Assembly (NCBI GenBank): GCA_963746765.1
Contig: CAVVCN010000002.1
Location: 139,362-203,361, forward strand
Source: an uncultured Actinomycetes bacterium
Lineage (GTDB): Bacteria > Actinomycetota > Thermoleophilia > Gaiellales > Gaiellaceae
Direction: 5' to 3'
Length of the DNA: 64,000 bases
Part shown: in pieces, positions 20,257 through 56,060 of the stretch
How positions within the stretch are numbered: position 1 is the stretch's first letter
How the letters are laid out: every line of letters starts with the position of its first letter
Notes under the pieces: generated by a model
Database searches by the model: none
What the model saw: only the letters and a program-made list of their open reading frames with translations
What the model was told of the DNA's origin: nothing
Position numbers and translations under genes: made by a program

Positions 20257-20263
20257 GGGCGCG

Positions 20264-20280
20264 AATGATAGTGATTCCCA
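20264..20280. promoter_or_regulatory. candidate Zur box in the zur/znuA divergent region
   Basis: AATGATAGTGATTCCCA matches 13 of 17 positions of the actinobacterial Zur-box core AATGAAAATGATTTTCA as I recall it. It is the only AT-rich patch in the 52-nt intergenic region. Confidence 0.5.
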
Positions 20281-20308
20281 ACATCGTCTGTGGTATAAGA
20301 CGGCTCCG

Positions 20309-21214
20309 ATGCGAGCAAGAATCGTTCTCATCTTCTCGGTGGTCGCGCTCGCTGCCGGCGTAGCGGGCTGTGGAGGCTCCGACGACGCGGGCTCCGGCAC
20401 CGAGATCGTCGCGGCCTTCTACCCGCTCGCGTATCTCGCCGAGCACGTCGTCCCCGACGCGGAGGTCACGAACATCACGCCTGCCGGCGCGGAGCCGCAC
20501 GACTTCGAGCTCTCGGCGCGCGATATCGAGACGCTGAGCTCGGCCGACCTCGTGCTCTACCTCGGCGGTGGCTTCCAGCCGGCCGTCGAGGACGCAGTGG
20601 CGGAAGACGCGGCTGCGGTCGACCTGCTCGAATGGCAGCAGCTGGTCGCTGGCTCGGAGGAGCATGGTCACGATGAGGAAGGACACGACGTGGCGAAGGG
20701 GCACGGCGCGTCCGGGCTCGACCCGCACGTCTGGCTCGACCCGGTGCGTTTCGCCGCGATGGCGCGTCGCGTCGCCGAGGCAACCGGCGATCCCGAGGCC
20801 GCGAACGGTCTCGCCGCCCAGCTCCAGGCGCTCGACGACGAGTTCCGCGCCGGCCTCTCCGACTGCGAGCGGCGCGAGATCGTCACGAGCCACGCCGCCT
20901 TCGGATACCTCGCCCGCGCCTACGACCTGACGCAGATCCCGCTGACCGGAGTCGCGCCGGAGGCAGAGCCGTCGCCTCGTGACCTCGAGGAGCTCGTCGC
21001 CGAGGTGGAGGAGCGGGGCGCGACGACGGTCTTCTTCGAAACGCTCGTGTCGCCGAGGCTCGCGGAGACGGTCGCGCGAGAGGCCGGCGCGGAGGTCGCG
21101 GTGCTCAACCCGCTGGAAGGCCTCACGAACGAGGAGGTCGAGGAGGGCGACGACTACTTCTCCGTCATGCGCTCGAACCTCGACACCCTTCGCAGCGCCC
21201 TCGGATGCACGTAG
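20309..21214 (+). CDS. znuA: zinc ABC transporter substrate-binding lipoprotein (cluster A-1, ZnuA-like)
   Basis: Lipobox VAGC followed by GGSDD. His/acid-rich loop EEHGHDEEGHDVAKGHG, DPHVWLDP motif. Adjacent to zur. Confidence 0.85.
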   Translation: MRARIVLIFSVVALAAGVAGCGGSDDAGSGTEIVAAFYPLAYLAEHVVPDAEVTNITPAGAEPHDFELSARDIETLSSADLVLYLGGGFQPAVEDAVAEDAAAVDLLEWQQLVAGSEEHGHDEEGHDVAKGHGASGLDPHVWLDPVRFAAMARRVAEATGDPEAANGLAAQLQALDDEFRAGLSDCERREIVTSHAAFGYLARAYDLTQIPLTGVAPEAEPSPRDLEELVAEVEERGATTVFFETLVSPRLAETVAREAGAEVAVLNPLEGLTNEEVEEGDDYFSVMRSNLDTLRSALGCT

Positions 21215-21930
21215 CGCCGGCGGTCGAGCTCGACTCGGTCTCGTTCGCCTACGCGCGCGGCGAGCCGGTGCTCCGCGACGTCGACCTGCGCATCGGACAA
21301 GGCGAGTTCGTCGCCATCGCGGGGCCGAACGGGGGCGGGAAGACGACGCTGCTCCGGCTCGTGCTCGGCCTCGAGCAGCCGGCGTCCGGTGCCGTGCGGC
21401 TCTACGGCGAGCCGGCCGACCGGTTCTCGCGGCGCGAGACACTCGGCTACCTGGCTCAGCGTGCGCATCTCGGCGTCGACGCGCCGGTGACGGTTCGCGA
21501 GGTCGTGTCCGCCGGGAGGCTTCCGGCGGCGGGGCTCCTCGGCCCACTTCGTCGCCACGATCGGACGCGCGTCGAGGAGGCGATCGAGCTCGTGGGGCTC
21601 ACCGGCCAGGCGGACGCCGTGCTCGGGCGCCTTTCGGGCGGACAGCAGCAGCGGGCGCTGATCGCCAAGGCGCTGGCCGGGGAGCCGGCGCTGCTCGCGC
21701 TGGACGAGCCGACGACGGGAGTCGACGCGGAGTCGCAGGAGACGCTCGGCGCACTGCTCGCGCACCTGCGCGAGGAGCTCGGCGTCACGATCCTCTATGT
21801 CTCCCACGAGTTCGGCGCCGTCGAGCGTCACGTCGAGCGGCTCGTGCTCGTTCGCGGAGGGATCATCTTCGACGGCCCGCCCGCGGAGCTGCCCGGCATC
21901 TGGCACGACCCCTCGCACGTCCATGTTTGA
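21205..21930 (+). CDS. znuC: zinc ABC transporter ATP-binding protein
   Basis: Walker A GPNGGGKTT, signature LSGGQQQRA, Walker B LALDEPTTGVD. Overlaps znuA by 10 nt. Confidence 0.85.
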   Translation: MHVAPAVELDSVSFAYARGEPVLRDVDLRIGQGEFVAIAGPNGGGKTTLLRLVLGLEQPASGAVRLYGEPADRFSRRETLGYLAQRAHLGVDAPVTVREVVSAGRLPAAGLLGPLRRHDRTRVEEAIELVGLTGQADAVLGRLSGGQQQRALIAKALAGEPALLALDEPTTGVDAESQETLGALLAHLREELGVTILYVSHEFGAVERHVERLVLVRGGIIFDGPPAELPGIWHDPSHVHV

Positions 21931-22726
21931 GTCGGAGTTCATGCGCCTGGCGTTCGCGGCGGGGGCGGTGATCGGCGTTCTCGCTCCGGCGGTCGGCTTC
22001 TTCCTCGTCCAGCGGCGTCTGAGCCTCATCGGCGACGGCATCGGGCACGTCGCCTTCGCCGGGGTGGCGCTCGGCATCCTCCTCGACGTCTCGCCGATCC
22101 TGACCGCTCTCGTGGCCGCCGTGGTCGGCGGCGTCGTGATCGAGTGGCTCCGGGCGCGCCGCGTGGCGGCCGGCGACCAGGCGCTCGCGCTCGTCTTCTA
22201 CACGGGCATCGCCGCGGGGGTCGTGCTCATCTCTGCCGCCGGCTCCTTGAACGTCGATCTCTTCCAGTACCTCTTCGGCTCGATCCTCACCGTTACGCGC
22301 GAGGACCTCCTCGTGATCTCGCTCCTCGGCGTCACCGGCCTGACCGCGATCGCGTTGCTCTACCGGGCGCTGTCGGCGGTCGTCATCGACGAGGAGGGGG
22401 CGCGCGTCTCGGGCGTGCCGGTGGGGCTGCTCAACGTCGTCCTCGCCGCTCTCGCGGCGCTCACGGTCGCGCTGTCGATGCAGATCGTCGGAGTGCTCCT
22501 GATCGCGGCGCTCATGGTGCTGCCGGTGACGGCCGCGACCCGGGTCGGCTGGAGCCTTGCGTCCACGCTGCTGCTCTCGATCGCAATCGGGCTCGCGTCG
22601 GTCTTCCTCGGCCTCACCACGTCGTACTACGCCGACCTGCCTCCCGGAGGGACGATCGTGCTGGTCGCGGCGGGTGCGGTCGTCGCAGCGGCGCTCGCGA
22701 GCGCGGCTCAGTCCTCGACGCGGTAG
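21923..22726 (+). CDS. znuB: zinc ABC transporter permease
   Basis: ATG 21923 overlaps the znuC end by 8 nt. Hydrophobic; FMRLAFAAGAVIG...LSLIGDGIGHVAFAGVALG is typical of the ABC-3 family. Confidence 0.85.
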   Translation: MFESEFMRLAFAAGAVIGVLAPAVGFFLVQRRLSLIGDGIGHVAFAGVALGILLDVSPILTALVAAVVGGVVIEWLRARRVAAGDQALALVFYTGIAAGVVLISAAGSLNVDLFQYLFGSILTVTREDLLVISLLGVTGLTAIALLYRALSAVVIDEEGARVSGVPVGLLNVVLAALAALTVALSMQIVGVLLIAALMVLPVTAATRVGWSLASTLLLSIAIGLASVFLGLTTSYYADLPPGGTIVLVAAGAVVAAALASAAQSSTR

Positions 22727-23058
22727 ACCGCCGCCTCGCCGATCACCTGCGCGCCGGACGGTGGGACACGCTCGCACGTCGCCGCCGCAGCGCCCGCGGG
22801 CCAGCGGCAGATCACGAAGAGATCCTCGTTGCTGCTCGAGATGCCGTAGGTCGTCCCGTTCGGCTCGTTGATCGTGCTGAAGATCGTGAGCTGCTTGTCG
22901 CCGCACACGGTTGCGAGCGACGCGGGGCACTCGGTCTCGCTCGGCCAGTCCCGTGTCGGCTCGAGGCCGATCTGCGCGGGGTCGCCGATGCCGCACCCGC
23001 TGAGTCCGAGCGCGAGCACGACGAGCCCGGCCGCGGCGAGCGCACCGAGCCTACGCAT
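22708..23058 (-). CDS. small lipoprotein, unknown function
   Basis: ATG 23058 (MRRLGALAAAGLVVLALGLSGC lipobox). Four further Cys; high GC3. Confidence 0.55.
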   Translation of the reverse strand: MRRLGALAAAGLVVLALGLSGCGIGDPAQIGLEPTRDWPSETECPASLATVCGDKQLTIFSTINEPNGTTYGISSSNEDLFVICRWPAGAAAATCERVPPSGAQVIGEAAVYRVED

Positions 23059-24028
23059 GGGTCGTCGGCGAGACGGGCTCATCCCTGGTCAGCACACGAA
23101 AGCGTTCCACGGTGCGGGCAACGCCCTCCGAAAGGGGGGTGTGCGGGAGCGGGCCCAGCAGCCTTGCGAGCAGGCGGGACTCGAGGGACGCCGGAAACGG
23201 CAGTGGCTGGTCCGCCCACGTGATCGTGCCGGCCGCCTCGGGCGCCGCTGCCTCGATGGCCGCGACGACCTCCTTCATGGAGGACGACTCGCCCGGGAAG
23301 TTCGCGACGTGCGCGCCGTCGCGCACCGCCCGGGCGGCGAGCGCGAAGGCACGGCCGACGTCGGGCGCGAAGTCGTACTGTGCTGCCCCGCCGTATGCGA
23401 TCTCGAACGGCTCGCCGCGGGCGGCGGCGGCCATCGCGAGCGTCGGGGCGGACGTCATGCCCTGGTCGCGGCCTGGCCCGTACACGACGTACGGCCGGAT
23501 GCCGATCGACGCGACGCCGTCGTCCTGCCAGAACACGCGTGCGGTTCCCTCGTTCGCGAGCTTGTACGTGCCGTACAACGTTCCCGGCGCGGTTCCCCCG
23601 GCCTCCGGGGCCGGAGACGGATCCGCGGCGTTGTAGACCGCGGTCGAGCTCGCGTACGCGAGGCCCGGCAGCCGGTCGCTCCGCTCGCGCACCGCTTCGA
23701 AGACGACGACCGTGCCGAGCACGTTGACCTTCGCGCCCAGTGCAGGGTCGGCGCGGCAGAAGGGAACCTGGAGCGCCGCGAGATGCACGACCGCGGTGAT
23801 TTCGTGGTCGTCGAGCGTGCGACCGAGTGCGGCCCTGTCGGTTACGTCGCCCTGGACGAGCGTCACACGCTCGCGTTCGGCGTCGTCCAGGACGAGGCGG
23901 AGCCGCGAGTCGTCCCCGCCGAGGTCGTAGCCGACGGGATGCTCGCCGTCGTCGAGCAGCGCCTTGAGCGTCCACGCGCCGAGGCAGCCGAGGGCACCGG
24001 TGACGAGCGTCCGCGGTGCCTCAGGCAA
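23051..24028 (-). CDS. NAD-dependent epimerase/dehydratase family protein
   Basis: TTG at 24028 overlaps the upstream ALDH stop. LVTGALGCLG Rossmann motif, catalytic YGTYK. The 531-aa ORF upstream of this is shadow. Confidence 0.75.
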   Translation of the reverse strand: MPEAPRTLVTGALGCLGAWTLKALLDDGEHPVGYDLGGDDSRLRLVLDDAERERVTLVQGDVTDRAALGRTLDDHEITAVVHLAALQVPFCRADPALGAKVNVLGTVVVFEAVRERSDRLPGLAYASSTAVYNAADPSPAPEAGGTAPGTLYGTYKLANEGTARVFWQDDGVASIGIRPYVVYGPGRDQGMTSAPTLAMAAAARGEPFEIAYGGAAQYDFAPDVGRAFALAARAVRDGAHVANFPGESSSMKEVVAAIEAAAPEAAGTITWADQPLPFPASLESRLLARLLGPLPHTPLSEGVARTVERFRVLTRDEPVSPTTHA

Positions 24029-25484
24029 GCGGCGCGTCCTGGTACACGGTGACGGCCTCGGTGTAGAACTCGATGGCCGCGCGGCCCTGCTCGTGCGGGC
24101 CCCAGCCGGAGCCCTTGATGCCGCCGAAGGGCACGTGCACGTCCGCGCCCGCGGTCTGGGAGTTGACGTGGATGATCCCGGCACCGATCTCCTGCGTGAA
24201 GCGCTGCACCGCGTGCAGGTCGCGCGTGAAGATCGAGGCCGACAGGCCGAAGCGGACCGCATTCGCGCGCTCGAGCGCCTCGTCGAGCGTCGAGTACCGG
24301 TAGAGCGAGGTGACCGGCCCGAAGACCTCCTCGCACGAGAGCTCCGCGTCGTCCGCGAGGCCCTCGAACACCGTCGGCGCGATGAGGTAGCCCTCGTCGT
24401 CCGCACGGTCGCCTCCGGCGAGCACCGTGCCCCCTTCGGAGCGCGCACGATCGACCGCGCCCAGGATGTCCTCGAAGGCGCCTTCGTTGACGACCGGCCC
24501 GACCTCGACCTCCGGGTCTGCGGGGTCGCCGACCTTGCCCGCCGCGATACGGGCGAGGAAGGCCTCCCGGAACTCGTCGTAGACCGCGTCCTCCACGAAG
24601 ATCCGCCGGGTCGCCGTGCACTTCTGGCCGGCCGACCAGAACGCACCCGCGTACGACGCCTCGACGGCGCGGTCGACCTCGGCGTCGGCCGCGACGAGGA
24701 GTGGGTTGTGACCTCCGAGCTCGAGCTGCACGCGGCAGTCGCGTGCGGTCGCCTGCTCGCGCACCGAGTGCCCGACGGGGACGGACCCCGTGAACGAGAT
24801 GGCGCAGACGCCCGGATTGCGGACGAGCTCCGCCCCGACCGTCGAGCCCGAGCCGGTGAGCACGTTGAGCACTCCCGGCGGGAGCCCGGCCTCGGCGAAC
24901 GCCTCGGCGACGTGCAGGCCCGTGCGCGGCGCCTCGTACCCGAGCTTCAGCACGACGGTGTTCCCGTAGATCAAGGCCGGCGCGAGCTTCCAGACCGGGA
25001 TCGCGATCGGGAAGTTCCACGGCGTGATGAGGCCGACGACGCCGACCGGGCGCCGCAGCGTATAGAGGCGCTGGTTCGGGACGGACGGCTCGTAGAGCTC
25101 ACCGATCGGGCGCCACGCTTCCCCGGCGGAGTAGCGGAGGATCGCGGCGGCGCGGAGCGCTTCGAGGCGAGCCTCGCGGAGCGGCTTGCCCATCTCTCGC
25201 GTCATGTCCTGCGCGATCTGCTCGGCGCGTGCTTCCAGCGCGTTCGCCGCCTTGCCGAAGAACGCCGCCCGCTGGCCCGCGGGCAGCGCGGACCACGCCG
25301 GGAACGCCTCGCGCGCGGCGTCGACCGCCGCGCCTGCGTCGTCGACAGTGGAGGCGGGATAGACGCCGGTCACCTCGGACGGACGCCAGGGGTTCCGCTT
25401 CTCGTACGTCTCGCCGCCGGCGCTCTCGCGCCACTCGCCGCCGATGTAGTTGCGCGCGGGCGACTCCGTGAGCGTTTCAGACAT
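24021..25484 (-). CDS. aldehyde dehydrogenase, 2,5-dioxopentanoate (alpha-ketoglutarate semialdehyde) dehydrogenase-like
   Basis: 487 aa. ITPWNFP, ELGGHNP (Glu), SAGQKCTATRR (Cys), EEVFGPV. Operon context with the KdaD-like gene. Confidence 0.85.
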   Translation of the reverse strand: MSETLTESPARNYIGGEWRESAGGETYEKRNPWRPSEVTGVYPASTVDDAGAAVDAAREAFPAWSALPAGQRAAFFGKAANALEARAEQIAQDMTREMGKPLREARLEALRAAAILRYSAGEAWRPIGELYEPSVPNQRLYTLRRPVGVVGLITPWNFPIAIPVWKLAPALIYGNTVVLKLGYEAPRTGLHVAEAFAEAGLPPGVLNVLTGSGSTVGAELVRNPGVCAISFTGSVPVGHSVREQATARDCRVQLELGGHNPLLVAADAEVDRAVEASYAGAFWSAGQKCTATRRIFVEDAVYDEFREAFLARIAAGKVGDPADPEVEVGPVVNEGAFEDILGAVDRARSEGGTVLAGGDRADDEGYLIAPTVFEGLADDAELSCEEVFGPVTSLYRYSTLDEALERANAVRFGLSASIFTRDLHAVQRFTQEIGAGIIHVNSQTAGADVHVPFGGIKGSGWGPHEQGRAAIEFYTEAVTVYQDAPLA

Positions 25485-26301
25485 GTGCAGCGCTCCTTTC
25501 GACGAGGGTCGAAGCGAGGACGACCGGATTCGAGAGCGTGCCGATCCCGGGCACGGAGATCTCGACGACGTGTCCGGGCTCGAGCGTGAAGTCGTCGGGC
25601 GGCACGAGGCCGGTGCCCGTGAGGAGGACGCTCCGCGGAGGCACCGGGTTGTCGCGCACGAGGTAGGCGACGAGCTCCTCGAACGAGCGCTTCATCCGAA
25701 CCGTCGACGTCTCACCGGCGAAGAGCTCGCGGCTTGCCTCGTCGAGGATCCGCATGGAGATCTCGAGCGGCTCGTCGGGAGCGGGGGTGAGGACAGCCGG
25801 GCCGAGCGCGCACGCACCTGCGTACACCTTCGCCTGCGGGAGGTACAGCGGATTGGCGCCTTCGATGTCGCGCGACGACACGTCGTTCCCGATCGTGACA
25901 CCCGAGATCCCTCCGTCGTCGCCCAGCACCACTCCGATCTCCGGCTCGGGGACGTTCCAGCCCGAGTCCGAGCGGATCGCGATCGGTCGGCCGGGGCCGA
26001 CGGTGCGGCGGCAGGCGGCGTCCTTCAGGAACAGCTCGGGCCGCTCCGCCTCGTAGACGAGCGAGTAGACGTCCCGCACCGCGCTCTCCTCGATCCGAGC
26101 GTCGCGCGAGCGCTCGTAGGTGACTCCGGCGCACCAGACCTCCGGTGGCTCGAGCGGGAGCAGGAGCTCGTACGGTTCGGGCAGCGCGAGCGTCTCGAGG
26201 TCGAGCGGCTCGATGCGCACTCCGTCGCGCGTCAGCACGACTCCGTCCTCGACCGCGCCGTCGTCGATGCCGCTCGGGCCGCGGAAGCGAATCCGGCGCA
26301 T
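25477..26301 (-). CDS. FAH-family 2-dehydro-3-deoxy-D-arabinonate dehydratase (KdaD)-like protein
   Basis: ATG 26301 overlaps the SDR stop (ATGA). PPEVWCAGVTYERSR, RPELFLKD, IAIRSDSGWNVPEPEIGVVL, DVSSRDIEGANPLYLPQAKVYAGACALGP, YLVRDNPVP and ISVPGIGTLSNPV parallel the Sulfolobus KdaD sequence as I remember it. Confidence 0.8.
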   Translation of the reverse strand: MRRIRFRGPSGIDDGAVEDGVVLTRDGVRIEPLDLETLALPEPYELLLPLEPPEVWCAGVTYERSRDARIEESAVRDVYSLVYEAERPELFLKDAACRRTVGPGRPIAIRSDSGWNVPEPEIGVVLGDDGGISGVTIGNDVSSRDIEGANPLYLPQAKVYAGACALGPAVLTPAPDEPLEISMRILDEASRELFAGETSTVRMKRSFEELVAYLVRDNPVPPRSVLLTGTGLVPPDDFTLEPGHVVEISVPGIGTLSNPVVLASTLVERSAAHV

Positions 26302-27035
26302 CAGTAGACCGCCCGCCCGCCCGAGATGTCGTACGTCGCGCCGGTAGAGAACGAGCACTCCTCGCTCGCCAGCCAGCAGACGAGGGCCGCCACCTCGTCC
26401 GCTCCGCCCATGCGGCCCATGGGGATGCGCTCGACCATGTAATCGATGTGCTCCTGCGAGACGCCCTCGAGGATCGGCGTCTCGATCACGGCGGGCGCGA
26501 CGCAGTTCACGAGGACGCCCGTCCGCGCGAGGTCCTTGCCGATCGCCTTCGTCATGCCGATCACCGCGGCCTTCGACGCGGAGTAGGCGGCCGCCATCGG
26601 GTTGCCCTCCTTCCCCGCGATCGAGGCGACGTTGACGATCCGCCCGTACCCGCGCTCGACCATGCCCGGCGCGACGGCCCGGTTGCAGTAGAAGACGCCG
26701 TCGGTGTTGATCGCGAGCACGCGGCGCCACTCCTCGTCCGGGATCTCGAGGCTCGGGAGCGACTTGCCGGGGATCCCGGCGGAGCAGACGAGGACGTCGA
26801 TCGGCCCGAGCTCGACCTCGACCTGACTCACCGCCGCCTGCACGTCTCCCGAGCGCGAGACGTCGCCGGCGAGTGCGAGGACGCCCTCGGTGTCGGCCGC
26901 CTGCAGGTCGAGAGCGGCGACGCGCGCTCCCTCGGTGACGAGCCGTCGCGAGACGGCGGCCCCGATCCCGCTCGCGCCGCCGGTGACGAGGGCGATGCGG
27001 TCGGAAAATCGATAATCGTTCGTTCTGTTGCCCAT
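26301..27035 (-). CDS. SDR family oxidoreductase (candidate sugar 1-dehydrogenase)
   Basis: VTGGASGIG, CSAG, catalytic YSASK; 244 aa. First gene of the minus-strand operon. Confidence 0.85.
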   Translation of the reverse strand: MGNRTNDYRFSDRIALVTGGASGIGAAVSRRLVTEGARVAALDLQAADTEGVLALAGDVSRSGDVQAAVSQVEVELGPIDVLVCSAGIPGKSLPSLEIPDEEWRRVLAINTDGVFYCNRAVAPGMVERGYGRIVNVASIAGKEGNPMAAAYSASKAAVIGMTKAIGKDLARTGVLVNCVAPAVIETPILEGVSQEHIDYMVERIPMGRMGGADEVAALVCWLASEECSFSTGATYDISGGRAVY

Positions 27036-27111
27036 GCTGCTCCGCCAAGCCTAAAGTCTGCTCGGTGGACGTTCCAGGCGACCCCGGGCTTTCGGCACCT
27101 GCGGGAACGCG

Positions 27112-27534
27112 GTGAGCGCGAGGCCGTTCGACCCGGAACGCGACTATCCGCTCGGCTCGCAGCGTCCTGACCTCGTGACGACTCCGGGCGGGCTTCCGCT
27201 CGCCGAGGTGACACTCGATGCGCTTCGCGCCGGCCGAATCGACGCGTCGGAGATACGTGCGACACCCGCGACCCTGCGGCTCCAGTCCGAGGTCGCCCGC
27301 GCCGCCGGGCGCGCACCGCTCGCAGCCAGCCTCGAGCGCGCGGCAGAGCTCGCGGCGGTTCCGGACGAGCTCCTGCTCGCGGTGTACACGGCGCTCCGCC
27401 CTCGGCGCGCGACGGCCTCCGAGCTCGAGGGCTGGGCCGTGCGGCTCGAGGAGCACGACGCCACTGAGACCGCGGCGTTCGTACGCGAGGCGGCTGCCGC
27501 GTATGCCGAGCGAGGGCTGCTCGCGGATGCGTAG
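27112..27534 (+). CDS. coenzyme B12-dependent diol/glycerol dehydratase small (gamma) subunit
   Basis: GTG start; 140 aa. DYPL...RPDLVTTPGG...EVTLDALRAGRIDASEIRATPATLRLQSEVA...AAELAAVPDE..LAVYTALRPRRAT..EL follows the PduE/DhaB3 pattern. Confidence 0.8.
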   Translation: MSARPFDPERDYPLGSQRPDLVTTPGGLPLAEVTLDALRAGRIDASEIRATPATLRLQSEVARAAGRAPLAASLERAAELAAVPDELLLAVYTALRPRRATASELEGWAVRLEEHDATETAAFVREAAAAYAERGLLADA

Positions 27535-29764
27535 CCGCCGCTTCGGCGCGCGCGACCGCCGCGATCTGCATCGGGAGACGCTCGTCGCGCCGTACGCCGA
27601 GCTCGGGCTCGTGGCTGCCGACGGGCCGCGCGACCCGTCCCCGGAGCTCGTGCTCGAAGGCGACCAGGTCGTGCGCCTGGACGGGCGGGCGGCCGCGGAC
27701 TTCGACATCATCGACCGCTTCGTCGTCGCGCACGGGCTCGACCTCGGCGTGGCGGAGGAGGCGATGGAGATCCCCGCTGCGGAGCTTGCCCGCATGCTCG
27801 TCGCACTCGATGTCCCACGGACGGAGCTCGTGCGGCTCGCCCGCGGCCTCACTCCGGCGACGCTCGCACGCGTCGTCGGCCTGCTCGACCCGGTCGAGCT
27901 CATGCTCGCGCTGAAGAAGCTCCGCGCTCGGCGGGCGCCGTCGAACCAGGCGCACGTCACGAACCTGAAGGAGAGCCCCGCGCTGCTCGCCGCGGACGCC
28001 GCCGAGGCGGCGCGGCGCGGCTTCGCCGAGATCGAGACGACGGTCGGCGTCGCCCGCTACGCGCCGTTGAACGCGCTCGCACTCCTCGTCGGCTCCCAGG
28101 TCGGGCGTCCGGGGGTCATGACCCAGTGCGCCGTCGAGGAGCGGCGCAACCTCGAGCTCGCCATCCGGGGGCTCGTCACGTATGCGGAGACGCTGTCCGT
28201 GTACGGCACCGAGCCGGTCTTCGTCGACGGCGACGACACGCCCTGGTCGAAGGCGTTCCTCGGCGCCGCCTACGCCTCGCGCGGCGTCAAGGTCCGCTTC
28301 ACATCGGGGACGGGCTCCGAGGCGTTGATGGGCTACGCGCAGGGGCACTCGATGCTCTACCTGGAGGCGCGCTGCCTCGCGGCGGTGCGGGCGGCCGGCT
28401 CGCAGGGCGTCCAGAACGGCTCGATCTCGTGCGTCGCGCTCGTGCTCTCCGTTCCCGGCGGGTCGCGGGCGATCCTCGGCGAGAACGTGCTTGCGGCCTG
28501 GCTCGACCTCGAGGTCGCCTCCGGCAACGACGCGATCGCCTCGCATTCGGAGATCCGCAAGACCGCGAAGCTCATGGGGCAGTTCCTCCCCGGCACGGAC
28601 TTCGTGACCTCGGGCTACTCGGTGATGCCACGGCACGACAACACATTCGGCGGCGGCAACTTCGACGCGGACGACCTCGACGAGTGGCTCACCGTGCAAC
28701 GTGACTGGCAGGTCGATGCCGGGATCGAGCCCGTCGCCGAGGACGAGGTGCTGCGCGTGCGCGAGGAGGCGGCGCGCGCGATCCAGGCCGTGTTCGCCGG
28801 GCTCGGCCTTCCGCCCGTGACGGACGAGGAGGTCGGCGCTGCGACGACGGGCTACGACTCGGGCGAGATGCCCGACCGCGACCGCGCGGCCGACGTCGAG
28901 GCGGCCGACGAGCTGCTCGCGCGAGGCGTTTCGGGTCTCGACGTCGCCTCGGTCCTCGCCGAGCGCGGCTTCGGCGACGCTGCCGACGCGGTGCTCTCGA
29001 TGCAGCGCCAGCGCGTCTCCGCGGACTACCTCCAGACTTCTGCGGTCATCGGTGCGGACGGCGTCGTGCACTCCGCGGTCAACGATCCCAACGAGTACAC
29101 GGGACCCGGAACCGGTTACCGGCTCGAGGGGCCGCGCTGGGAGCTCCTCCAGGCGTTGCCGAACGTCGTCGACCCTGCGGCGCTCATCGGGGTGGACGAG
29201 AGCGGCGAGCCGATCGTCGTCGAGCACGGTGAGGCCGCGGTCGGCGAAGACCCCGGCGAGGTCGTCGTGGCGGTCGGTCCTGCGTTCGCGGATGCGATCC
29301 GGCAGACGATCGCGGACCTGCGGCATGACGACGTGCTCGAGGCCGTCTGCGACGGAATCCGAGCGGGAGGGGCGACGCCGCGCATCGTCCGCATCAGGCG
29401 CGTGGCCGACGTCGCGTTCATCGCCCACGACGGCGCGCGCCTTTCGGGCTCGCGTATCGCGCTCGGCATCCAGTCGAAGGGGACGGCCGTGATCCACCGT
29501 GCGGACCTCGAGCCGCTCGACAACCTCGAGCTGTTCGGCATGTCTCCGCTGTATACGCTCGAGTCGTATCGCGCCATGGGGCGGAACGCGGCCGGCTACG
29601 CGCTCGGGCGCCGCGTCGGCCCGGTGCCGACCGAGCTCGACAACTTCGCCCGTGCGAAGCTCATCGTGAAGACGACGCTGCTCCACGCTCGCGAGACGCA
29701 GGCCGTCCGCGCCGACGCAGCCCCGGTCGAGCTCACGCTCGCCGTACCCGTCGCCTCTCGCTGA
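27527..29764 (+). CDS. coenzyme B12-dependent diol/glycerol dehydratase, fused large (alpha) and medium (beta) subunits
   Basis: ATG 27527 (MRSRRFGA...) overlaps the gamma gene by 8 nt. Alpha motifs: NQAHVTN, ARYAPLNALALLVGSQVGRPGV, YGTEPVFVDGDDTPWSKAFL, MLYLEARC, FLPGTDFVTSGYS, AVFAGLGLPPVTDEEV. After a short linker come beta motifs: VVVAVGPAF, SDVAFIAHDGARLSGS, IGIQSKGTAVIH, LELF. Confidence 0.9.
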   Translation: MRSRRFGARDRRDLHRETLVAPYAELGLVAADGPRDPSPELVLEGDQVVRLDGRAAADFDIIDRFVVAHGLDLGVAEEAMEIPAAELARMLVALDVPRTELVRLARGLTPATLARVVGLLDPVELMLALKKLRARRAPSNQAHVTNLKESPALLAADAAEAARRGFAEIETTVGVARYAPLNALALLVGSQVGRPGVMTQCAVEERRNLELAIRGLVTYAETLSVYGTEPVFVDGDDTPWSKAFLGAAYASRGVKVRFTSGTGSEALMGYAQGHSMLYLEARCLAAVRAAGSQGVQNGSISCVALVLSVPGGSRAILGENVLAAWLDLEVASGNDAIASHSEIRKTAKLMGQFLPGTDFVTSGYSVMPRHDNTFGGGNFDADDLDEWLTVQRDWQVDAGIEPVAEDEVLRVREEAARAIQAVFAGLGLPPVTDEEVGAATTGYDSGEMPDRDRAADVEAADELLARGVSGLDVASVLAERGFGDAADAVLSMQRQRVSADYLQTSAVIGADGVVHSAVNDPNEYTGPGTGYRLEGPRWELLQALPNVVDPAALIGVDESGEPIVVEHGEAAVGEDPGEVVVAVGPAFADAIRQTIADLRHDDVLEAVCDGIRAGGATPRIVRIRRVADVAFIAHDGARLSGSRIALGIQSKGTAVIHRADLEPLDNLELFGMSPLYTLESYRAMGRNAAGYALGRRVGPVPTELDNFARAKLIVKTTLLHARETQAVRADAAPVELTLAVPVASR

Positions 29765-29835
29765 CCTCATCGCACCGGTCGCGCGCTGCTCTCGGTTGCA
29801 TCGGCGTGCCTGGAAAGGTAAGACTTACGTACGTT

Positions 29836-29851
29836 GTAAGGCAAACCTTAC
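29836..29851. promoter_or_regulatory. candidate operator: perfect-arm palindrome GTAAGG-caaa-CCTTAC in an AT-rich leader
   Basis: Sits 16 nt upstream of ATG 29867, within ggtaagaCTTACGTacgttGTAAGGcaaaCCTTACGTtgGAGGtgagg. CTTACGT occurs twice. This is the only AT-rich patch for kilobases. Confidence 0.35.
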
Positions 29852-29866
29852 GTTGGAGGTGAGGCA

Positions 29867-30544
29867 ATGACGTCCACCACCGTGGAACCGCGCGACGGCG
29901 CAGCCGATGAGCTCGTCCGCCGTGCTCACGCACGCGCCTATCGCTATCCGGCAGGGCTCGCAGGCTTCCGAGCGAGTGTCGGCTGGCAGGTCGACGACCG
30001 ATCCGGCTCGGGAACCGTGACGGCCCGGACGGGCGCCGAGGTCGGCATCGAGCTGGACGCCGATGTGAGCGGCGACGACCGCGCCTGGGTCGAGCGCGAG
30101 CTGCGCTCGATCGTCGCCCATCGGCAGGCAAGCACGTACGAGGAGGGCGACGGACGGCACGCGAAGCGGGTCGGCGAAGACTCCGGGCACAGGCTCGGGA
30201 CGCTCATCGAGCTCGACGACGAGTACGGCTCGTCCTACCGAGTGTCCGGCGAGGAGCTCTCTACCGTCACCCGGACGCTCGGCGGACGCCGCTTCACGAT
30301 CGTCGTCCACGAGCGGATGACGGCGCCGGACGGTGCGGGCCTCCCGACGTCGTTCAGCGTCTTCTACTGGGACGCGGGAAGCGGCGATCTCGCCGCCTCC
30401 GAGGCGTACCGCGACGTTCCGGTCGAGGTCGACGGAATTCTCCTTCCGGCGTCCCGCACGATCGTGCGGGCAGCCTCCGACGGCCTGTCGGTGCGCTCGC
30501 TCGAGCTCTCCGGCCACGCGCTCCTGACGGACGGCGAGCGATGA
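29867..30544 (+). CDS. hypothetical cytoplasmic protein, first gene of the ABC importer operon
   Basis: Good RBS (GGAGGTGAGG), high GC3. ATGA coupling to the downstream binding-protein gene. No signal peptide and no motif I can name confidently. Confidence 0.6.
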   Translation: MTSTTVEPRDGAADELVRRAHARAYRYPAGLAGFRASVGWQVDDRSGSGTVTARTGAEVGIELDADVSGDDRAWVERELRSIVAHRQASTYEEGDGRHAKRVGEDSGHRLGTLIELDDEYGSSYRVSGEELSTVTRTLGGRRFTIVVHERMTAPDGAGLPTSFSVFYWDAGSGDLAASEAYRDVPVEVDGILLPASRTIVRAASDGLSVRSLELSGHALLTDGER

Positions 30545-31500
30545 ACGGTCGTCGCGCTCTCACGTTCGTCGGTCTGGCGCTCGCATTCGCCGTCGCGCTG
30601 ACGGGCGGCGTCGCCGCGGCCGCCAAGCCGAAGGCGCCCAAGGTCGAGGCGAGCCCCCTTCTACCCGCGCGGGTCGCCGACAAGGACGGCCGCACGGTGG
30701 TCGTTCGCGACGTCTCGCGCATCGTTCCCCTGAACGGCGATCTCGCGGAGACCGTCTTCACCCTCGGGCTGACGAGGAACGTCGTGGGCGTGGATACGAG
30801 TGCGACGTATCCCGAGCGCTCCGTGGCGCGCGTGCCGAAGATCGGCTACCAGCGGACGCTCTCGGCCGAGGGGATCCTGTCGCTACGGCCCACCGTCGTG
30901 ATCGGCTCGCCCGCGGCCGGTCCACCCGCGGTCATCGAGCAGCTGCGCACGGCAGGCGTGACCGTCGTGATCATCCCCGAGTACAAGGCGTTGAACGCAG
31001 GCGCGCGCAAGCTGCGCATCGTCGGCAAGGCGCTCGGCGTCCCCAACCGGGGCGAGAGGCTGGCTCGGCAGGTCGAGTCGCAGATCAGGATCGCGAGGCG
31101 CGAGGTCGCCTCGACGGGCGCCAAGCCCCGGGTCGCGTTCCTCTACCTGCGCGGCACACAGGTGCAGATGATCGGCGGCAAGGGATCGGGTGCGGACGCA
31201 ATGATCGCCGCTGCGGGCGGACGTGACGTCGGAGTCGAGGCCGGGATCGACAGGTTCAAGCCCTTCAGCGCGGAGGCGCTCGTCGCGGCGCGGCCGGACG
31301 TCCTGCTCCTCCTGAGCGCGGGCCTGCAGTCGGTCGGCGGCGTCGACGGGTTGCTGCGGCTGCCCGGAGTGGCGCAGACGCCGGCCGGGCAGGCACGTCG
31401 GATCGTCCACTACGACGATCTGCTGCTGCTGGGTCTCGGCCCGCGTACCGGGAAGGCCCTCCGGCTGCTGATTCGTGGCCTCCACCCCGACCTCCGCTAG
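30541..31500 (+). CDS. periplasmic binding protein of heme/siderophore/cobalamin (cluster A-2) ABC importer, HmuT-like
   Basis: Signal peptide MNGRRALTFVGLALAFAVALTGGVAAAA. RIVPLNGDLAETVFTLG...VVGVD and ARPDVLLL are typical of this binding-protein class. Confidence 0.75.
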   Translation: MNGRRALTFVGLALAFAVALTGGVAAAAKPKAPKVEASPLLPARVADKDGRTVVVRDVSRIVPLNGDLAETVFTLGLTRNVVGVDTSATYPERSVARVPKIGYQRTLSAEGILSLRPTVVIGSPAAGPPAVIEQLRTAGVTVVIIPEYKALNAGARKLRIVGKALGVPNRGERLARQVESQIRIARREVASTGAKPRVAFLYLRGTQVQMIGGKGSGADAMIAAAGGRDVGVEAGIDRFKPFSAEALVAARPDVLLLLSAGLQSVGGVDGLLRLPGVAQTPAGQARRIVHYDDLLLLGLGPRTGKALRLLIRGLHPDLR

Positions 31501-32596
31501 CGAGGCTCCGAGCGCGACGGGAGCCGCGGCCTCGAGGCGCAGCCGCGGCCCCGTCGCACCGGGGGCGATCGCTCGGCCCGCCGCGCTCCTCGCGGGGAGC
31601 GTCGGCCTGCTCGTCGTCGCGCTGCTGCTCGGCGTAGGCGTGGGTGCAGTTCGGATCGCGCCCGGGGACACCATCTCGATCGTCCTCTCGCATCTCGGCG
31701 TCCACTCCGCAGAAGACGTCGACCCGCAGCAGGACGCGATCCTGTGGGCGATCCGCCTGCCCCGCGTGCTGCTCGGTGCTCTCGTCGGCGGTGCGCTGGC
31801 CGTGTCCGGGGCGGCGCTGCAGGGCGTCTTCCGCAACCCGCTCGCCGACCCCGGGATCATCGGGGTCTCGAGCGGCGCCGCGTTCGGTGCCGTGCTCGCG
31901 ATCTTCTTCGGGCTCGGCGCCGAGATCCGCGGCGGCCTGCAACTGGCGGCGTTCGTGGGCGGCGTCGTCACCGCCTTCGTCGTCTATGCCCTGGCCCGGT
32001 ACGAGGGGCGTACCGAGACGGTGACGCTGATCCTCACGGGAGTCGCCGTCGCCGCGATCGCCGCGGCCGGGGTCGGCTTCGTGATCGCGCGCGCGGACGA
32101 CGATCAGCTGCGCGACATCGTGTTCTGGTCGCTCGGCAGCCTCGGCGGCTCCACGTGGACGCTCGTCGGCTCGACGCTGCCGTTCATTGCTTTGGGCTCG
32201 GCCGTCTGCGTCGTCCGCGCGAAGCAGCTCGATCTCATGGCGCTCGGCGAGCGCGAGGCGCGCCACCTCGGGCTCGACACCGAGCGCGAACGAACGTTGC
32301 TGATCGCCGGGACGACGCTCGCGACGAGCGCCGCGGTCGCGGCGGTCGGCGTCGTCGCTTTCGTCGGCCTCGTCGTCCCACACCTCGTCCGCCTTGCGAT
32401 CGGCCCCGCGCATCGCCTGCTGCTGCCGACGACGTTCATCCTCGGTGCCGCGCTCCTCGTGCTCGCGGACCTCGTGGCGCGAACGGCGACGGCGCCCGTC
32501 GAGCTGCCGCTCGGCGTGGTCACCGCGCTCATCGGCGGCCCGTTCTTCCTCTGGCTCATCGCGCGCACGAGGCGGGCGCACGGAGGCTGGGGATGA
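31475..32596 (+). CDS. FecCD/BtuC family ABC transporter permease, HmuU-like
   Basis: Hydrophobic; LRLPRVLLGALVGGALAVSGAALQGVFRNPLADPGIIGVSSGAA is the FecCD signature region. GTG start overlaps the upstream gene. Confidence 0.85.
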   Translation: MASTPTSASEAPSATGAAASRRSRGPVAPGAIARPAALLAGSVGLLVVALLLGVGVGAVRIAPGDTISIVLSHLGVHSAEDVDPQQDAILWAIRLPRVLLGALVGGALAVSGAALQGVFRNPLADPGIIGVSSGAAFGAVLAIFFGLGAEIRGGLQLAAFVGGVVTAFVVYALARYEGRTETVTLILTGVAVAAIAAAGVGFVIARADDDQLRDIVFWSLGSLGGSTWTLVGSTLPFIALGSAVCVVRAKQLDLMALGEREARHLGLDTERERTLLIAGTTLATSAAVAAVGVVAFVGLVVPHLVRLAIGPAHRLLLPTTFILGAALLVLADLVARTATAPVELPLGVVTALIGGPFFLWLIARTRRAHGGWG

Positions 32597-33417
32597 GCTC
32601 CGGGCCCGCCACCGGGCTCTCTGCCGTCGGCGTCTCGTATCACGTCGCCGGGCGGGCGATCGTGGACGGGGTCGACCTCGAGCTCCGTCCGGGCCAGCTC
32701 GTGGCCCTCGTCGGCCCGAACGGCGCCGGCAAGTCGACCTTGCTGAGGCTGCTGGCCGGCGAGCTCGAGCCCACGGCCGGAGGTGTCCTCGTCGGAGACG
32801 TGCCGCTCGCCGCGCTGCGGCCGGCGGAGCAGGCGCGCGTCCGCGCCGTGATGCCGCAGCACACGAGCCTCCAGTTCGCGTTCACGGTTCGCCAGGTCAT
32901 AGAGCTCGGCCGCTATCCGCATCGCCCCTCGCGAGGGGACGCAGTGATCGTCGCCGAGGCGATGTCCCGCGCCGACGTCGGTCACCTCGCCGAGCGGTCG
33001 TTCCTCACGCTGTCCGGCGGCGAGCAGTCGCTCGCGACGCTCGCGCGCGTCCTCGCCCAGCAGGCGGGTGTGCTTCTGCTGGACGAGCCGACCGCGTCGC
33101 TCGACATCCGCCATCGCGAGCACGTGATGACGACGGCACGCGAGGCCGCCGAGGCCGGAGCGACCGTCTGCGTGGTCGTCCACGACCTCAACGTCGCTGC
33201 CGCGTACGCACATCGGGTCGTCCTGCTCGACGACGGTAGGAAGGTGTGCGACGACGTGCCCTGGGAGTCGCTCACCGCCGCGAGGGTCGGGAGCGTGTTC
33301 GGGTACGGCGTGACCGTGACCAGGAGCCCTGCCGGCGATCATCCGCTCGTGACGCCATTGCCCGCAGTCGCACCCCGCCGAGAGCCGGTGCCGGCTCGGT
33401 CCTACGCCGTCCGGTAG
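32593..33417 (+). CDS. ABC transporter ATP-binding protein, HmuV-like
   Basis: ATGA overlap. Walker A GPNGAGKST, LSGGEQS, Walker B LLLDEPTASLD, HDLNVAAAYA. Confidence 0.85.
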   Translation: MSSGPATGLSAVGVSYHVAGRAIVDGVDLELRPGQLVALVGPNGAGKSTLLRLLAGELEPTAGGVLVGDVPLAALRPAEQARVRAVMPQHTSLQFAFTVRQVIELGRYPHRPSRGDAVIVAEAMSRADVGHLAERSFLTLSGGEQSLATLARVLAQQAGVLLLDEPTASLDIRHREHVMTTAREAAEAGATVCVVVHDLNVAAAYAHRVVLLDDGRKVCDDVPWESLTAARVGSVFGYGVTVTRSPAGDHPLVTPLPAVAPRREPVPARSYAVR

Positions 33418-33457
33418 GCGCTACCGTTGCGGTGTTGTCGCGCGGGACGATGGGTGC

Positions 33458-33760
33458 GTGAAGATCGAGTTCCTCTTCTGGGAGGAGTGCCCGTCGCATG
33501 CGGAGGCACTGGCACTCCTGCAGCAGGTGCTCGACGAGCGCGGCATCTCCGATCCCGTCGAGCTGCGTGAGGTCCTCACGCACGAGGACGCGCTGGCGCT
33601 CCACTTTCCGGGCTCGCCGACGATCCGCGTCGACGGGCGCGACGTGGATCCCGGGGGCGCCGACTGGCCGCCCGGCCTGAGTTGCCGCGTGTACCGTCTT
33701 CCCGACGGGCGAGCGTCGCCCGTGCCCAGTCGCCAGCAACTCGAGGAGGCCTTCGCGTGA
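33458..33760 (+). CDS. small thioredoxin-fold-like protein
   Basis: 100 aa. MKIEFLFWEECPSH...FPGSPTIRVDGRDVDP resembles small glutaredoxin/thioredoxin-like proteins. Confidence 0.55.
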   Translation: MKIEFLFWEECPSHAEALALLQQVLDERGISDPVELREVLTHEDALALHFPGSPTIRVDGRDVDPGGADWPPGLSCRVYRLPDGRASPVPSRQQLEEAFA

Positions 33761-34281
33761 GCGTCATCGAGACTGCCCCGACCTTCGATCTGCCCGGTGT
33801 GGACGGACGCAACCACACGCTCGAGGAGTACGCGGATGCGCCGGTTCTCGTGCTCGTCCAGTCCTGCAACCACTGCCCGTACGTGCTTGCGTGGGAGGGC
33901 CGGATCGATGCGATCCAGCGCGAGTATGCCGACCGCGGACTCCGGATCGTCGCCATCAACTCGAACGACGCGAGCGCGTACCCGGCCGACTCCTTCGACG
34001 CGATGGTCGCTCACGCGCGAGACGCCGACTACTCCTTCGACTACCTCTACGACGAGAGCCAGGCGGTCGGGCGTGCGCTCGGTGCCGAGCGAACGCCAGA
34101 GGCGTACGTCTTCGACGCCGACCGCAAGCTCGTCTATCACGGGGCCGTGGACGACAATCGCGACGAGGACGCCGTCAACCAGCACTACCTCCGCGATGCG
34201 GTCGAGGCCGCGCTCGCGGGCGAGACGCCGCCGGTCTCCGACACGCCGGCCGTCGGCTGCACCGTCAAGTGGCGTAGCTGA
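33757..34281 (+). CDS. thioredoxin/redoxin (AhpC-TSA-like) family protein
   Basis: GTG overlaps the upstream stop (GTGA). APTFDLPGVDG, CxxC site SCNHCP, ERTPEAYVFD. Confidence 0.8.
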   Translation: MSVIETAPTFDLPGVDGRNHTLEEYADAPVLVLVQSCNHCPYVLAWEGRIDAIQREYADRGLRIVAINSNDASAYPADSFDAMVAHARDADYSFDYLYDESQAVGRALGAERTPEAYVFDADRKLVYHGAVDDNRDEDAVNQHYLRDAVEAALAGETPPVSDTPAVGCTVKWRS

Positions 34282-34311
34282 GCGCGCCGGCGGCGGTACC
34301 CGCCCGGACGC

Positions 34312-35227
34312 ATGGACGAAGCTTTCGAGTTCGCCGCCGAAGACGGGACGCGTCTCGTCGGCACGCTGACGAGGGCCGATACGGCGGGCCCCTCGCCCGC
34401 GGCGCTGCTGCTCAACGGCTCCGGCCCGCTCGACCGGGACTCGAACATGCCGGGACAGGCGCTCGACGTCGCCAAGACGCTGGCCGAAGGGCTCGCCGCA
34501 CGCGGCGTCGCGTCGCTCCGCTACGACAAGCGCGGGGTCGGGGAGTCGTCGGGCGAGTACCTGACGACCGGCTTCGGGCAGGAGGCGAGCGACGCCTCGC
34601 GGGCACTGTCGGCTCTTCGCGCTGCTCCGGCGGTCGACGCCGGCGCGGCTCGTGGCCGTCGGTCACTCGGTCGGTGCGACGATCGCGATCGGGCTCGCCG
34701 CGGCTGACCCCAGGCTCGCCGGGGTCGTGCTGCTCGCCGGATCGAGTCAGAACGGGGCGGACGTGATGCGCGTCCAGTCGGACCGTATCGCTGCATCGAT
34801 GGGAGGGGCGTCACGTCTGTTCGCGCGCTGGTTTCTCCGCCGGCAGAAGCGCATCCGCGAGCGCCTATTCGCGTCGACGGGCGACGTCGAGCGAGTCGGC
34901 CGCGAGCAGCTACCGGCCCGCTGGTTCCGTGAGTACATGGCCCACGACCCGACCGACGACCTGCGCGCGATCCGCTGTCCGATGCTGGCCGTGACCGGTG
35001 CCGACGACCTGCAGGTCGAGCCCGAGGACGTCGAGCGCATGCGCAGGACCGTCGTCGCGCCCTTCGAGGGGCGAACGCCCGAGGGCCTCACCCACCTCCT
35101 GCGCACCCACGACGGGCCGCCGAGCCTCGCGAGCTACCCGGCGCAGCTCGAGAAGCCGATGGACGCGGAGCTCGCCGCGGACATCGCAACGTGGACCTCC
35201 GAGCGCCTCGGCGAGCACCGCGGATGA
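34312..35227 (+). pseudogene. alpha/beta hydrolase interrupted by one frameshift
   Basis: The N part is ORF 34312..34707 and the C part is ORF 34652..35227, in the +1 frame. The nucleophile elbow VAVGHSVGA lies just after the shift (about 34635-34650). Joined, the parts form one colinear hydrolase. Confidence 0.7.
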
Positions 35228-35249
35228 GGTATCGAAGGCGCATCATCGA

Positions 35250-35732
35250 GTGGTGACGCGTGCCTGCCGGATCGCGCTGACGTGCCTAGTGGTGCTCGCA
35301 CTGCTCACATCCTGCGGCGGTGGCGAAGACGGCCGGGAGACGGGCGGCGGGTCGCAGTCACCGGTCCTGACGTTGACGGACACCGCGTGCACCTTCGCGG
35401 GCCCGCGCGAGATGCGCCCGGGTGAGCTCTCGATCGACGTGCAGAACGACAGCAGCCTGGCGGGCGGGTTCGAGCTCCTCCGGCTCGCCGAGAACGCCTC
35501 GGCCGACGAGCTGGCGGCCCACGTCGAGGAGCAGCAGGAGCGGATCGCCGAGGGTCTGGCTCCGGTCGTGACCCCGTCTATCGCGACGCGTCTCGATCGC
35601 GTGCCGGTCGTCGCGCGCTGGGGCAGCACGCTTGCCGCCGACGTCACCGCCGGCACGTACGGGCTCGTCTGCTTCATCGGCCCGCCGCCCAAAGCCATGT
35701 ACTTCGCGGCGGCGGTCGAGGTCGCGAAGTAG
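35250..35732 (+). CDS. lipoprotein, unknown function
   Basis: GTG 35250; lipobox LLTSC followed by GGGEDG. High GC3; 160 aa. Confidence 0.55.
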   Translation: MVTRACRIALTCLVVLALLTSCGGGEDGRETGGGSQSPVLTLTDTACTFAGPREMRPGELSIDVQNDSSLAGGFELLRLAENASADELAAHVEEQQERIAEGLAPVVTPSIATRLDRVPVVARWGSTLAADVTAGTYGLVCFIGPPPKAMYFAAAVEVAK

Positions 35733-35915
35733 CTACTCGCCGGGCTTGCCGCCCTGGCCCCAGTGCTTCGCCGGCACGCCCTGGATGATCACGTGGATGT
35801 GCTCCTTCGCGGCGCCGCTCGACTCGTGCAGGGCGTTGGTCAGCGCCTCGATCATCTTGGGCACGGACTCCTCGGTCACGCGGCGGTCGTAGAGCTTGAC
35901 GTCGATGACAGGCAT
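35733..35915 (-). CDS. 4-oxalocrotonate tautomerase family protein
   Basis: ATG 35915 with RBS AGGAGAGGAG. 60 aa, begins MPVIDVKLY (catalytic Pro1). Confidence 0.8.
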   Translation of the reverse strand: MPVIDVKLYDRRVTEESVPKMIEALTNALHESSGAAKEHIHVIIQGVPAKHWGQGGKPGE

Positions 35916-35962
35916 CGTCACTCCTCTCCTCGGGGATTCCGATCCTATGACGTGAGGCTCGG

Positions 35963-55814: not shown

Positions 55815-56060
55815 AGGGCTCCCTCTCCTCGAGCGTTCTCGCTGGCAGTGGATCTTTGGGCGAGTCTAATCGTGTCCGCACGGCCCGCGGAAACGATCGA
55901 TTCTCGATCAGCACGCAACGCAGGCCCGTGAGTGCGACCGAGTTATCCACAGCTCCGCCCCGCACGGGTGCAGGCCGGCGAACACGGCTCTGCACGGACG
56001 TCTGGCGCCGGTCGACGTCGGATCGTCCACAGGCGGACCCCCGGCGTCGCTAGGGCCCCG

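Follow-up and report, generated by a model that had tools for sequence, protein, structure and literature searches.

We analyzed a 64-kb stretch of DNA (the window) from a Gaiellaceae-like soil actinobacterium with about 71% G+C. A gene map of the window was drawn from the GC content of third codon positions (GC3), and every called gene was scanned with Pfam. The forward strand contains a pair of genes predicted to encode a B12-dependent diol/glycerol dehydratase. The first gene (27112..27534) has a GTG start and encodes a small (gamma) subunit 140 aa long that matches PF02287 over residues 10-137 (E 6e-39). The second gene (27527..29764) starts with ATG and encodes the large and medium (alpha-beta) subunits as a single protein of 745 aa, with PF02286 and PF02288 in one open reading frame (ORF). 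All three Pfam matches exceed the gathering scores. ATG 27527 sits within ATGCGTAG, which carries the stop codon of the small-subunit gene, giving an overlap of 8 nt between the two genes. An initial annotation of this DNA had proposed the dehydratase identity, the placement of the small subunit first, and the fusion of the large and medium subunits. All three proposals held up in the profile searches, which also set the domain borders.

The alpha domain comprises residues 1-551 of the fusion protein (27527..29179, +) and corresponds to positions 1-551 of the 552 in the PF02286 profile (806 bits). Its numbering is identical to that of PddA from Klebsiella oxytoca (1dio_A), and this gap-free match is the basis of all residue numbers given here. 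The domain also scored 802 bits with the NCBIfam large-subunit model NF011979, above the cutoff of 788. It is followed by a variable junction (residues 552-579; 29180..29263, +) that replaces the N-terminal segment of the beta subunit and by the beta core (residues 580-738; 29264..29740, +), with PF02288 matching residues 585-694. The medium-subunit model NF011616 aligned residues 559-738, which take in this core, with profile positions 38-217 of 219. Since this match begins at profile position 38, about 37 N-terminal positions of a PduD-type medium subunit are missing, and the score of 207 bits, under the cutoff of 248, is consistent with a missing N-terminus. The initial annotation had also noted a truncated medium subunit; alignment with PduD and DhaB2 showed that the loss holds relative to PduD only. 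The distance from the alpha C-terminus to the conserved EVVVAVGPAF strand is 28 residues, approximately the length of the short DhaB2-type N-terminal segment. Alignment of the small subunit with PduE and DhaB3 showed that it is DhaB3-like and has no counterpart of the N-terminal extension of about 33 residues found in PduE. Its best NCBIfam model, for the diol dehydratase small subunit, gave 139.8 bits against a cutoff of 196.

The three parts of the enzyme are 54, 48, and 46% identical to PduC, PduD, and PduE from Salmonella, respectively (47.5% for the beta core compared with PduD). The beta core matches 1iwp_B and 1dio_B (E ~1e-43), and residues 2-737 of the fusion protein align with the engineered alpha-beta fusions of Klebsiella pneumoniae in PDB 9via. 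The identity of the enzyme and its predicted catalytic chemistry rest on this strong homology.

To place the fusion among related loci, we used a scan of one genome per species in GTDB. Relatives were found in 472 species, and the best 80 of these, with flanks of +/-10 kb, were compared with the window to give a set of 81 sequences. These best 80 relatives are fused loci in metagenome-assembled genomes of Gaiellaceae, Thermoleophilia, or Actinomycetota, and are 78-91% identical to the window. Wherever a related locus includes upstream sequence, the small-subunit gene is located directly 5' of the fusion gene and in the same orientation. More than 120 protein clusters with 84-90% identity were recovered from 5.8 billion proteins; nearly all are about 745 aa long, each has both Pfam domains, and the names, where given, are Gaiellaceae, Actinobacteria, or soil metagenome. 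The fused form is the standard version of diol/glycerol dehydratase in soil Gaiellaceae.

An assembly error, a frameshift, or a decaying pseudogene might also give the appearance of a fusion, a caveat that the initial annotation had itself raised. Frame errors do occur in this DNA, where two genes elsewhere in the window (16415-17077 and 34312-35227) are probably frameshifted. However, the alpha-beta junction is in frame in all 81 independent assemblies, even though the junction sequence itself is variable and poorly conserved, and the contig names suggest that these assemblies came from different pipelines. The protein clusters have the same length, the catalytic residues are invariant, and the dehydratase has a GC3 of 0.92, which is typical of coding sequence in the host genome. 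Because the 80 related loci and more than 120 clusters share the in-frame fusion, we dropped the artefact or pseudogene reading, which is effectively refuted.

The alpha domain retains Q141, H143, E170, E221, Q296, S301, D335, and S362, as well as T222, S224, and F374. This includes the metal and substrate ligands (Q141, E170, E221, Q296, and S362) and the catalytic H143 and D335, all of which are intact in the window and the 80 relatives. The sole difference among the pocket residues checked is at position 336, where this enzyme has Ala and the canonical enzymes have Gln. Like the catalytic residues, Ala336 is invariant in 81 of 81 sequences, and this natural occurrence is a modest new detail. 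The closest counterpart is the Q336A mutant of the K. oxytoca enzyme (Yamanishi et al. 2012), which likewise combines Ala336 with a retained Ser301. According to the values tabulated in PMC7674605 (Table 1), this mutation lowered the kinact with glycerol from 1.15 to 0.081 per min (about 14-fold), with a partial loss of kcat/Km. The K. oxytoca protein is unfused and its point mutation was made in the laboratory; the natural Ala336 may share the kinetic effect.

We examined the locus for the genes that usually accompany such enzymes. Pfam scans of the 64-kb window detected no DDR/reactivase domain, no BMC or EutN shell domain (PF00936, PF03319), no PduO-type adenosyltransferase, and no MeaB-like domain. 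By tblastn, 23 Pdu and Dha proteins were compared with the window and 81 related loci, a total of 1.5 Mb. As queries we used the proteins of a Salmonella pdu operon and an enterobacterial dha regulon (plasmid pAF18_1), both annotated on plasmids. PduC, PduD, and PduE, used as controls, matched 80-82 subjects. In these 1.5 Mb there were zero matches to PduA, B, G, H, J, K, L, M, N, O, Q, S, T, U, or V, to either subunit (alpha or beta) of the Dha reactivase (DhaF/G), to the Dha adenosyltransferase, or to DhaT, and there was no match to PduP at E<=1e-3. The initial annotation had seen no reactivase, shell, PduP-type, or 1,3-propanediol dehydrogenase gene in the window, and these searches agree with it. 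Because 1.5 Mb of related loci gave no match, the missing reactivase and shell genes are a trait of the locus throughout this lineage and not of this window alone. The locus does not belong to a Pdu microcompartment system, having no shell genes and no encapsulation extensions on beta or gamma, or to a dha regulon, having no linked reactivase, DhaT, or adenosyltransferase in the window or the 81 loci.

A canonical reactivase of the DdrAB/PduGH type, along with an adenosyltransferase for re-adenosylation, could nonetheless be encoded at a distance, the operon being merely unlinked from its accessory genes. The window covers 64 kb of a genome of about 3 Mb, and actinobacterial gene clusters are frequently scattered, both of which leave room for this. 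By contrast, canonical loci hold the reactivase genes in the same cluster as the dehydratase genes, and there is none within +/-10 kb in the 80 related loci or on an Agrobacterium plasmid that carries another fused enzyme. Also, Martins-Pinheiro et al. (2016, PMC4777399) reported no reactivation-factor genes in fusion-bearing Mesorhizobium, Mycobacterium, and Hyphomicrobium. We therefore think that a distant canonical reactivase is rather unlikely.

Fused dehydratases have been described in other phyla. Natural alpha-beta fusions in Mesorhizobium loti and Mycobacterium smegmatis were reported by Liu et al. (2010) according to PMC7674605, which also describes the influence of fusion on reactivation as not known. 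Martins-Pinheiro et al. (2016) added Hyphomicrobium and proposed that reactivation in these three genera may not exist or may be run by another route. M. smegmatis is listed with three fused-type genes and no biochemistry is cited. A search of the literature for natural large-medium fusions, or for a diol dehydratase from Gaiella, yielded nothing beyond PMC7674605 and PMC4777399, and no assay of a natural fused dehydratase is reported in the papers found. The Gaiellaceae enzyme therefore belongs to a kind already known from sequence, natural fusions having been in print since 2010 and their lack of reactivase genes since 2016. The initial annotation had thus overstated the novelty of the locus, including that of the gene order, since the small subunit also comes first in one of the other fused lineages (829 aa, below). 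The new elements are details specific to this lineage, namely gene order, Ala336, the conserved neighbors, and a compact divergent promoter region.

Comparison with other fused lineages (L083, L085, and L086) showed how the Gaiellaceae enzyme differs from them. A library of representatives at 50% identity gave mostly fragments and yielded two of these lineages. The fusions of M. loti, M. smegmatis, Hyphomicrobium, and Agrobacterium resemble the Gaiellaceae enzyme in having one ORF for both large and medium subunits and a separate small-subunit gene. These natural fusions also share the lack of a nearby reactivase and of a microcompartment, and aerobic, non-fermentative hosts. The Agrobacterium cucumeris plasmid pO132a (L083, 9911-12603) encodes a 757-aa fusion followed by the small subunit. 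This gene lies within an operon for a sugar ABC transporter, next to SDR genes; within 10 kb there is an aldehyde dehydrogenase gene and no reactivase. A 759-aa metagenomic fusion has the same order, with the fused gene first, and the same S301D and Q336T changes as the Agrobacterium type. In an 829-aa fusion, a small subunit of 219 aa comes first, an HbpS-like/DUF336 protein comes after, and S301 and Q336 are kept. Identity between the Gaiellaceae enzyme and the Agrobacterium-type and P0128-type fusions is just 45-47%. In both of these types the fused gene precedes the small subunit and the pocket has S301D and Q336T, whereas in Gaiellaceae the small subunit is first and the pocket has S301 and Ala336. 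These differences in pocket residues and gene order suggest that there were several independent fusions or gene-order rearrangements.

Among unfused enzymes, DhaB1/2/3 from K. pneumoniae (PDB 1iwp, 1mmf) is similar in being cytosolic, in having the same catalytic residues, and in its short beta and gamma subunits, which carry no encapsulation extension. It differs in being encoded by three genes in the order alpha-beta-gamma and in having Gln336. The K. pneumoniae dha regulon also contains the reactivase, 1,3-propanediol dehydrogenase, and adenosyltransferase that were not found at the Gaiellaceae locus. PduCDE from Salmonella and K. oxytoca (PDB 1dio) shares the identity levels given above and the numbering of alpha residues 1-551. 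Unlike the Gaiellaceae enzyme, it has N-terminal extensions on PduD and PduE and belongs to a Pdu microcompartment with PduGH, PduO, PduS, PduP, PduQ, and PduL, none of which has a detectable homologue at the Gaiellaceae loci. The engineered K. pneumoniae fusions (PDB 9via, 9vig, 9vi2) have the same topology, with the alpha C-terminus joined to the beta N-terminus. However, these have an artificial linker and are derived from an enzyme normally served by a reactivase, whereas the Gaiellaceae junction is natural, variable, and evolutionarily fixed. Engineered fusions stayed active in the studies that PMC7674605 cites (Wang 2009, Maddock 2017, Gibson 2013); for one the same source gives a higher temperature optimum, and for another slower inactivation in lysate.

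Upstream of the dehydratase genes and in the opposite orientation is an operon whose start is 76 bp away (mostly 9-76 bp in relatives). Its first gene (26301..27035, -) encodes an SDR oxidoreductase (PF13561 and PF00106; 70 of 80 loci). This is followed by a gene (25477..26358, -; 66 of 80 loci) for a FAH-fold enzyme (PF01557) resembling KdaD, 2-keto-3-deoxy-D-arabinonate dehydratase. The protein matches Sulfolobus KdaD (PDB 2q18, E 8e-60), and comparison with the 274-aa gene of a related locus (L001) places its true start probably near 26301. The next gene (24021..25484, -; 61 of 80 loci) is located 1.6 kb upstream of the dehydratase and encodes a non-acylating NAD(P)+ aldehyde dehydrogenase (PF00171, E 3e-157). 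It resembles alpha-ketoglutaric semialdehyde dehydrogenases (KGSADH) and 2,5-dioxovalerate dehydrogenases, with NF042993 as the best NCBIfam model (535 bits against a cutoff of 770). The last conserved gene (23051..24028, -; 55 of 80 loci) encodes a protein with an NAD-dependent epimerase/dehydratase fold (PF01370). The initial annotation had found no enzyme for processing the aldehyde product, a claim that does not stand in this general form given the KGSADH-like enzyme retained beside the dehydratase in relatives. The aldehyde is probably oxidized by this neighboring enzyme. Such oxidation fits an aerobic route and parallels both the Agrobacterium locus and engineered strains that combine DhaB with KGSADH (PMC6542942), in which the KGSADH of Azospirillum brasilense oxidizes 3-hydroxypropanal.

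The same neighborhood can be read differently, with a larger sugar-derived vicinal diol or polyol as the true substrate and the dehydratase as part of an adjacent oxidative sugar pathway formed by the SDR, KdaD-like, and KGSADH-like enzymes. The tight divergent arrangement is conserved, and the adjacent pathway has no conventional sugar-acid dehydratase; Pfam scans of the window found no ILVD_EDD or enolase-type dehydratase. The fused gene of Agrobacterium is inside a carbohydrate ABC transporter operon. Ala336 is invariant, and engineered changes at positions 301 and 336 shift the chain-length preference and admit 1,2,4-butanetriol (PMC9850924). In that same study, however, the Q336A single mutant preferred 1,2-propanediol to longer diols. 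S301 and the other pocket residues checked (T222, S224, and F374) are canonical, and the synteny was sampled in one family at 78-91% identity and so may simply have been inherited. A sugar-derived substrate thus appears quite unlikely.

We consider it likely that the two genes form an operon for an apparently functional, free-cytosolic, AdoCbl-dependent diol/glycerol dehydratase of the fused type, without a reactivase in the operon and with oxidation of the aldehyde by the enzyme next door. The subunits would presumably assemble as (alpha-beta)2-gamma2. The enzyme would convert a small vicinal diol such as 1,2-propanediol, ethylene glycol, or glycerol to an aldehyde by the standard radical mechanism, and the KGSADH-like aldehyde dehydrogenase of the divergent operon would convert the aldehyde to an acid. 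This would constitute an aerobic route from diol to aldehyde to acid in place of a fermentative one. Ala336 may ease the lack of a linked reactivase and the tethering of beta to alpha may help too, so that the lack could be tolerated in part through these two features. The remaining repair would fall to protein turnover or to a factor encoded elsewhere. A stronger version of this idea is that the tethered, Ala336-containing enzyme is intrinsically resistant to suicide or oxygen inactivation, or exchanges damaged cobalamin without a chaperone, and so is independent of a reactivase in an aerobe; this we think is unlikely.

Several points weigh against a functional diol dehydratase linked to its neighbors and free of a reactivase. 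The medium and small subunits are both divergent, with NCBIfam scores under the curated cutoffs. Ala336 may mirror substrate preference instead of protection, because the K. oxytoca Q336A single mutant also lost catalytic efficiency. The reactivase, adenosyltransferase, and B12 supply may lie elsewhere in the genome, our searches having covered the 64-kb window and the +/-10 kb flanks of relatives. The neighboring operon resembles the lower half of a pentose pathway of the Weimberg type (KdaD, KGSADH), and its link with the dehydratase could be an adjacency inherited by descent within one family. Finally, a search of sequencing runs found no RNA run with the dehydratase sequence; the matches were soil metagenome contigs only, with 5-6% of the sampled words.

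B12-dependent glycerol and diol dehydratases are key to the production of 3-hydroxypropionate, 1,3-propanediol, and 1-propanol, and their main practical weakness is suicide inactivation, which leads to a need for an ATP-dependent reactivase. The locus described here is of a type widespread in abundant soil Gaiellaceae and is a compact two-gene unit with a natural Ala336. This makes it a sensible choice for testing reactivase-free function. If the enzyme were reactivase-independent, then together with the KGSADH-like aldehyde dehydrogenase it would make a natural route from diol to acid like the engineered route to 3-hydroxypropionate. The question of reactivation is genuine, yet it has previously been raised in print.

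The region between the two operons is short. Alignment of this region from 71 loci revealed a -10-like hexamer, TAAAGT in the window (27052..27057, +) and TA[A/G]AGT in relatives. The start codon of most relatives is 7-10 nt past this hexamer, suggesting a leaderless mRNA transcribed from a compact bidirectional control region. A scan of 26900-30100 for consensus promoters and terminators found none. A conserved sequence near the divergent start, ATCGATAATCG, was considered as an operator and rejected, as it actually codes for the N-terminus of the SDR protein. In the window, the codon 7 nt past the TAAAGT box, at the leaderless-start position of relatives, is GTG 27065, which is not in the reading frame of the small subunit. 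From it runs an ORF of 16 codons with a TGA stop that overlaps the annotated GTG 27112 as GTGA. This ORF is either a case of translational coupling or a frameshifted N-terminal extension of the small subunit, making the true start of the small subunit uncertain.

Downstream of the dehydratase is an insert of 5.9 kb (29765-35732) that separates it from a gene (35733..35921, -) for a 62-aa protein of the 4-oxalocrotonate-tautomerase family (PF01361; 70 of 80 loci). The two adjoin in relatives, where tautomerase genes are directly 3' of the dehydratase, as in L001. The insert contains a transporter block (29867..33417, +) with DUF3386, Peripla_BP_2, FecCD, and ABC ATPase genes identified by Pfam and NCBIfam matches; the DUF3386 gene probably starts at 29867, and the importer is of the iron-complex/heme/B12 class. 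Also encoded in the insert are a DF-family (seleno)protein and a redoxin, along with fragments of hydrolases and a 160-aa protein without an assigned function. The DUF3386, binding-protein, and FecCD genes occur in 0 of 80 related loci, and the DF and redoxin pair occurs in 13 of 80. The transporter block is a strain-specific insertion outside the conserved dehydratase unit. The initial annotation had suggested that this importer could supply corrinoid, for which we found no support. Its components score below the NCBIfam cutoffs for BtuC (305 compared with 461), BtuF (39 compared with 234), and BtuD (119 compared with 281), and the ATPase passes a heme-type model instead (NF010068, 295 compared with 261). 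There was no cobalamin riboswitch, with no Rfam family at gathering thresholds in the whole window and none at E<=5 across 26800-30700.

Overlapping palindromes (GTAAGACTTAC, ACTTACGTACGT, and GTAAGGCAAACCTTAC) are present at 29818-29855, just before a GGAGG ribosome-binding site and ATG 29867, and may be a putative operator of the DUF3386/transporter operon. We considered an IdeR/DtxR iron box at these palindromes and make no such claim, as by eye only one half-site resembles the consensus. Also within the insert, an alpha/beta-hydrolase (34312-35227, +) is represented by two ORFs that overlap and is probably frameshifted; its N-terminal part is Peptidase_S15-like and its C-terminal part is Abhydrolase_6.

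Other features were observed farther from the dehydratase. A molybdenum hydroxylase cluster (52053-58094) has a MoCoBD large subunit encoded as two genes, 2Fe-2S and FAD subunits, a MoxR-type AAA ATPase, and a VWA CoxE-like protein; 34-45 of 80 relatives have such a cluster no more than 10 kb from the dehydratase. The MoxR/VWA pair (56061-58094) was evaluated as a possible dehydratase chaperone and set aside, as it belongs with the adjacent molybdenum hydroxylase genes (CoxD/CoxE type) and just 10-16 of 80 loci have it. Next to this cluster is a gene for an AMP-binding (acyl-CoA synthetase-like) enzyme (58113-60962, -) with a Pro/Ala/Glu-rich, low-complexity C-terminal tail of about 400 residues and no homologue in the related loci. 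On the other side of the dehydratase, a ZnuA/ABC ATPase/ABC-3 metal importer (20093-22726, +) is inserted between conserved sugar-catabolic genes (GntR, Gfo/Idh/MocA, and a xylose-isomerase-like TIM barrel) and the divergent operon, and is present in only 3 of 80 relatives. A second gene of the FAA-hydrolase family (16415-17077, +) is split over two frames (16551-16928 and 16925-17077) with one Pfam domain spanning both, and is likely a frameshift, a pseudogene, or an assembly error. Each half has counterparts with 82-90% identity in about 30 of the 80 related loci.

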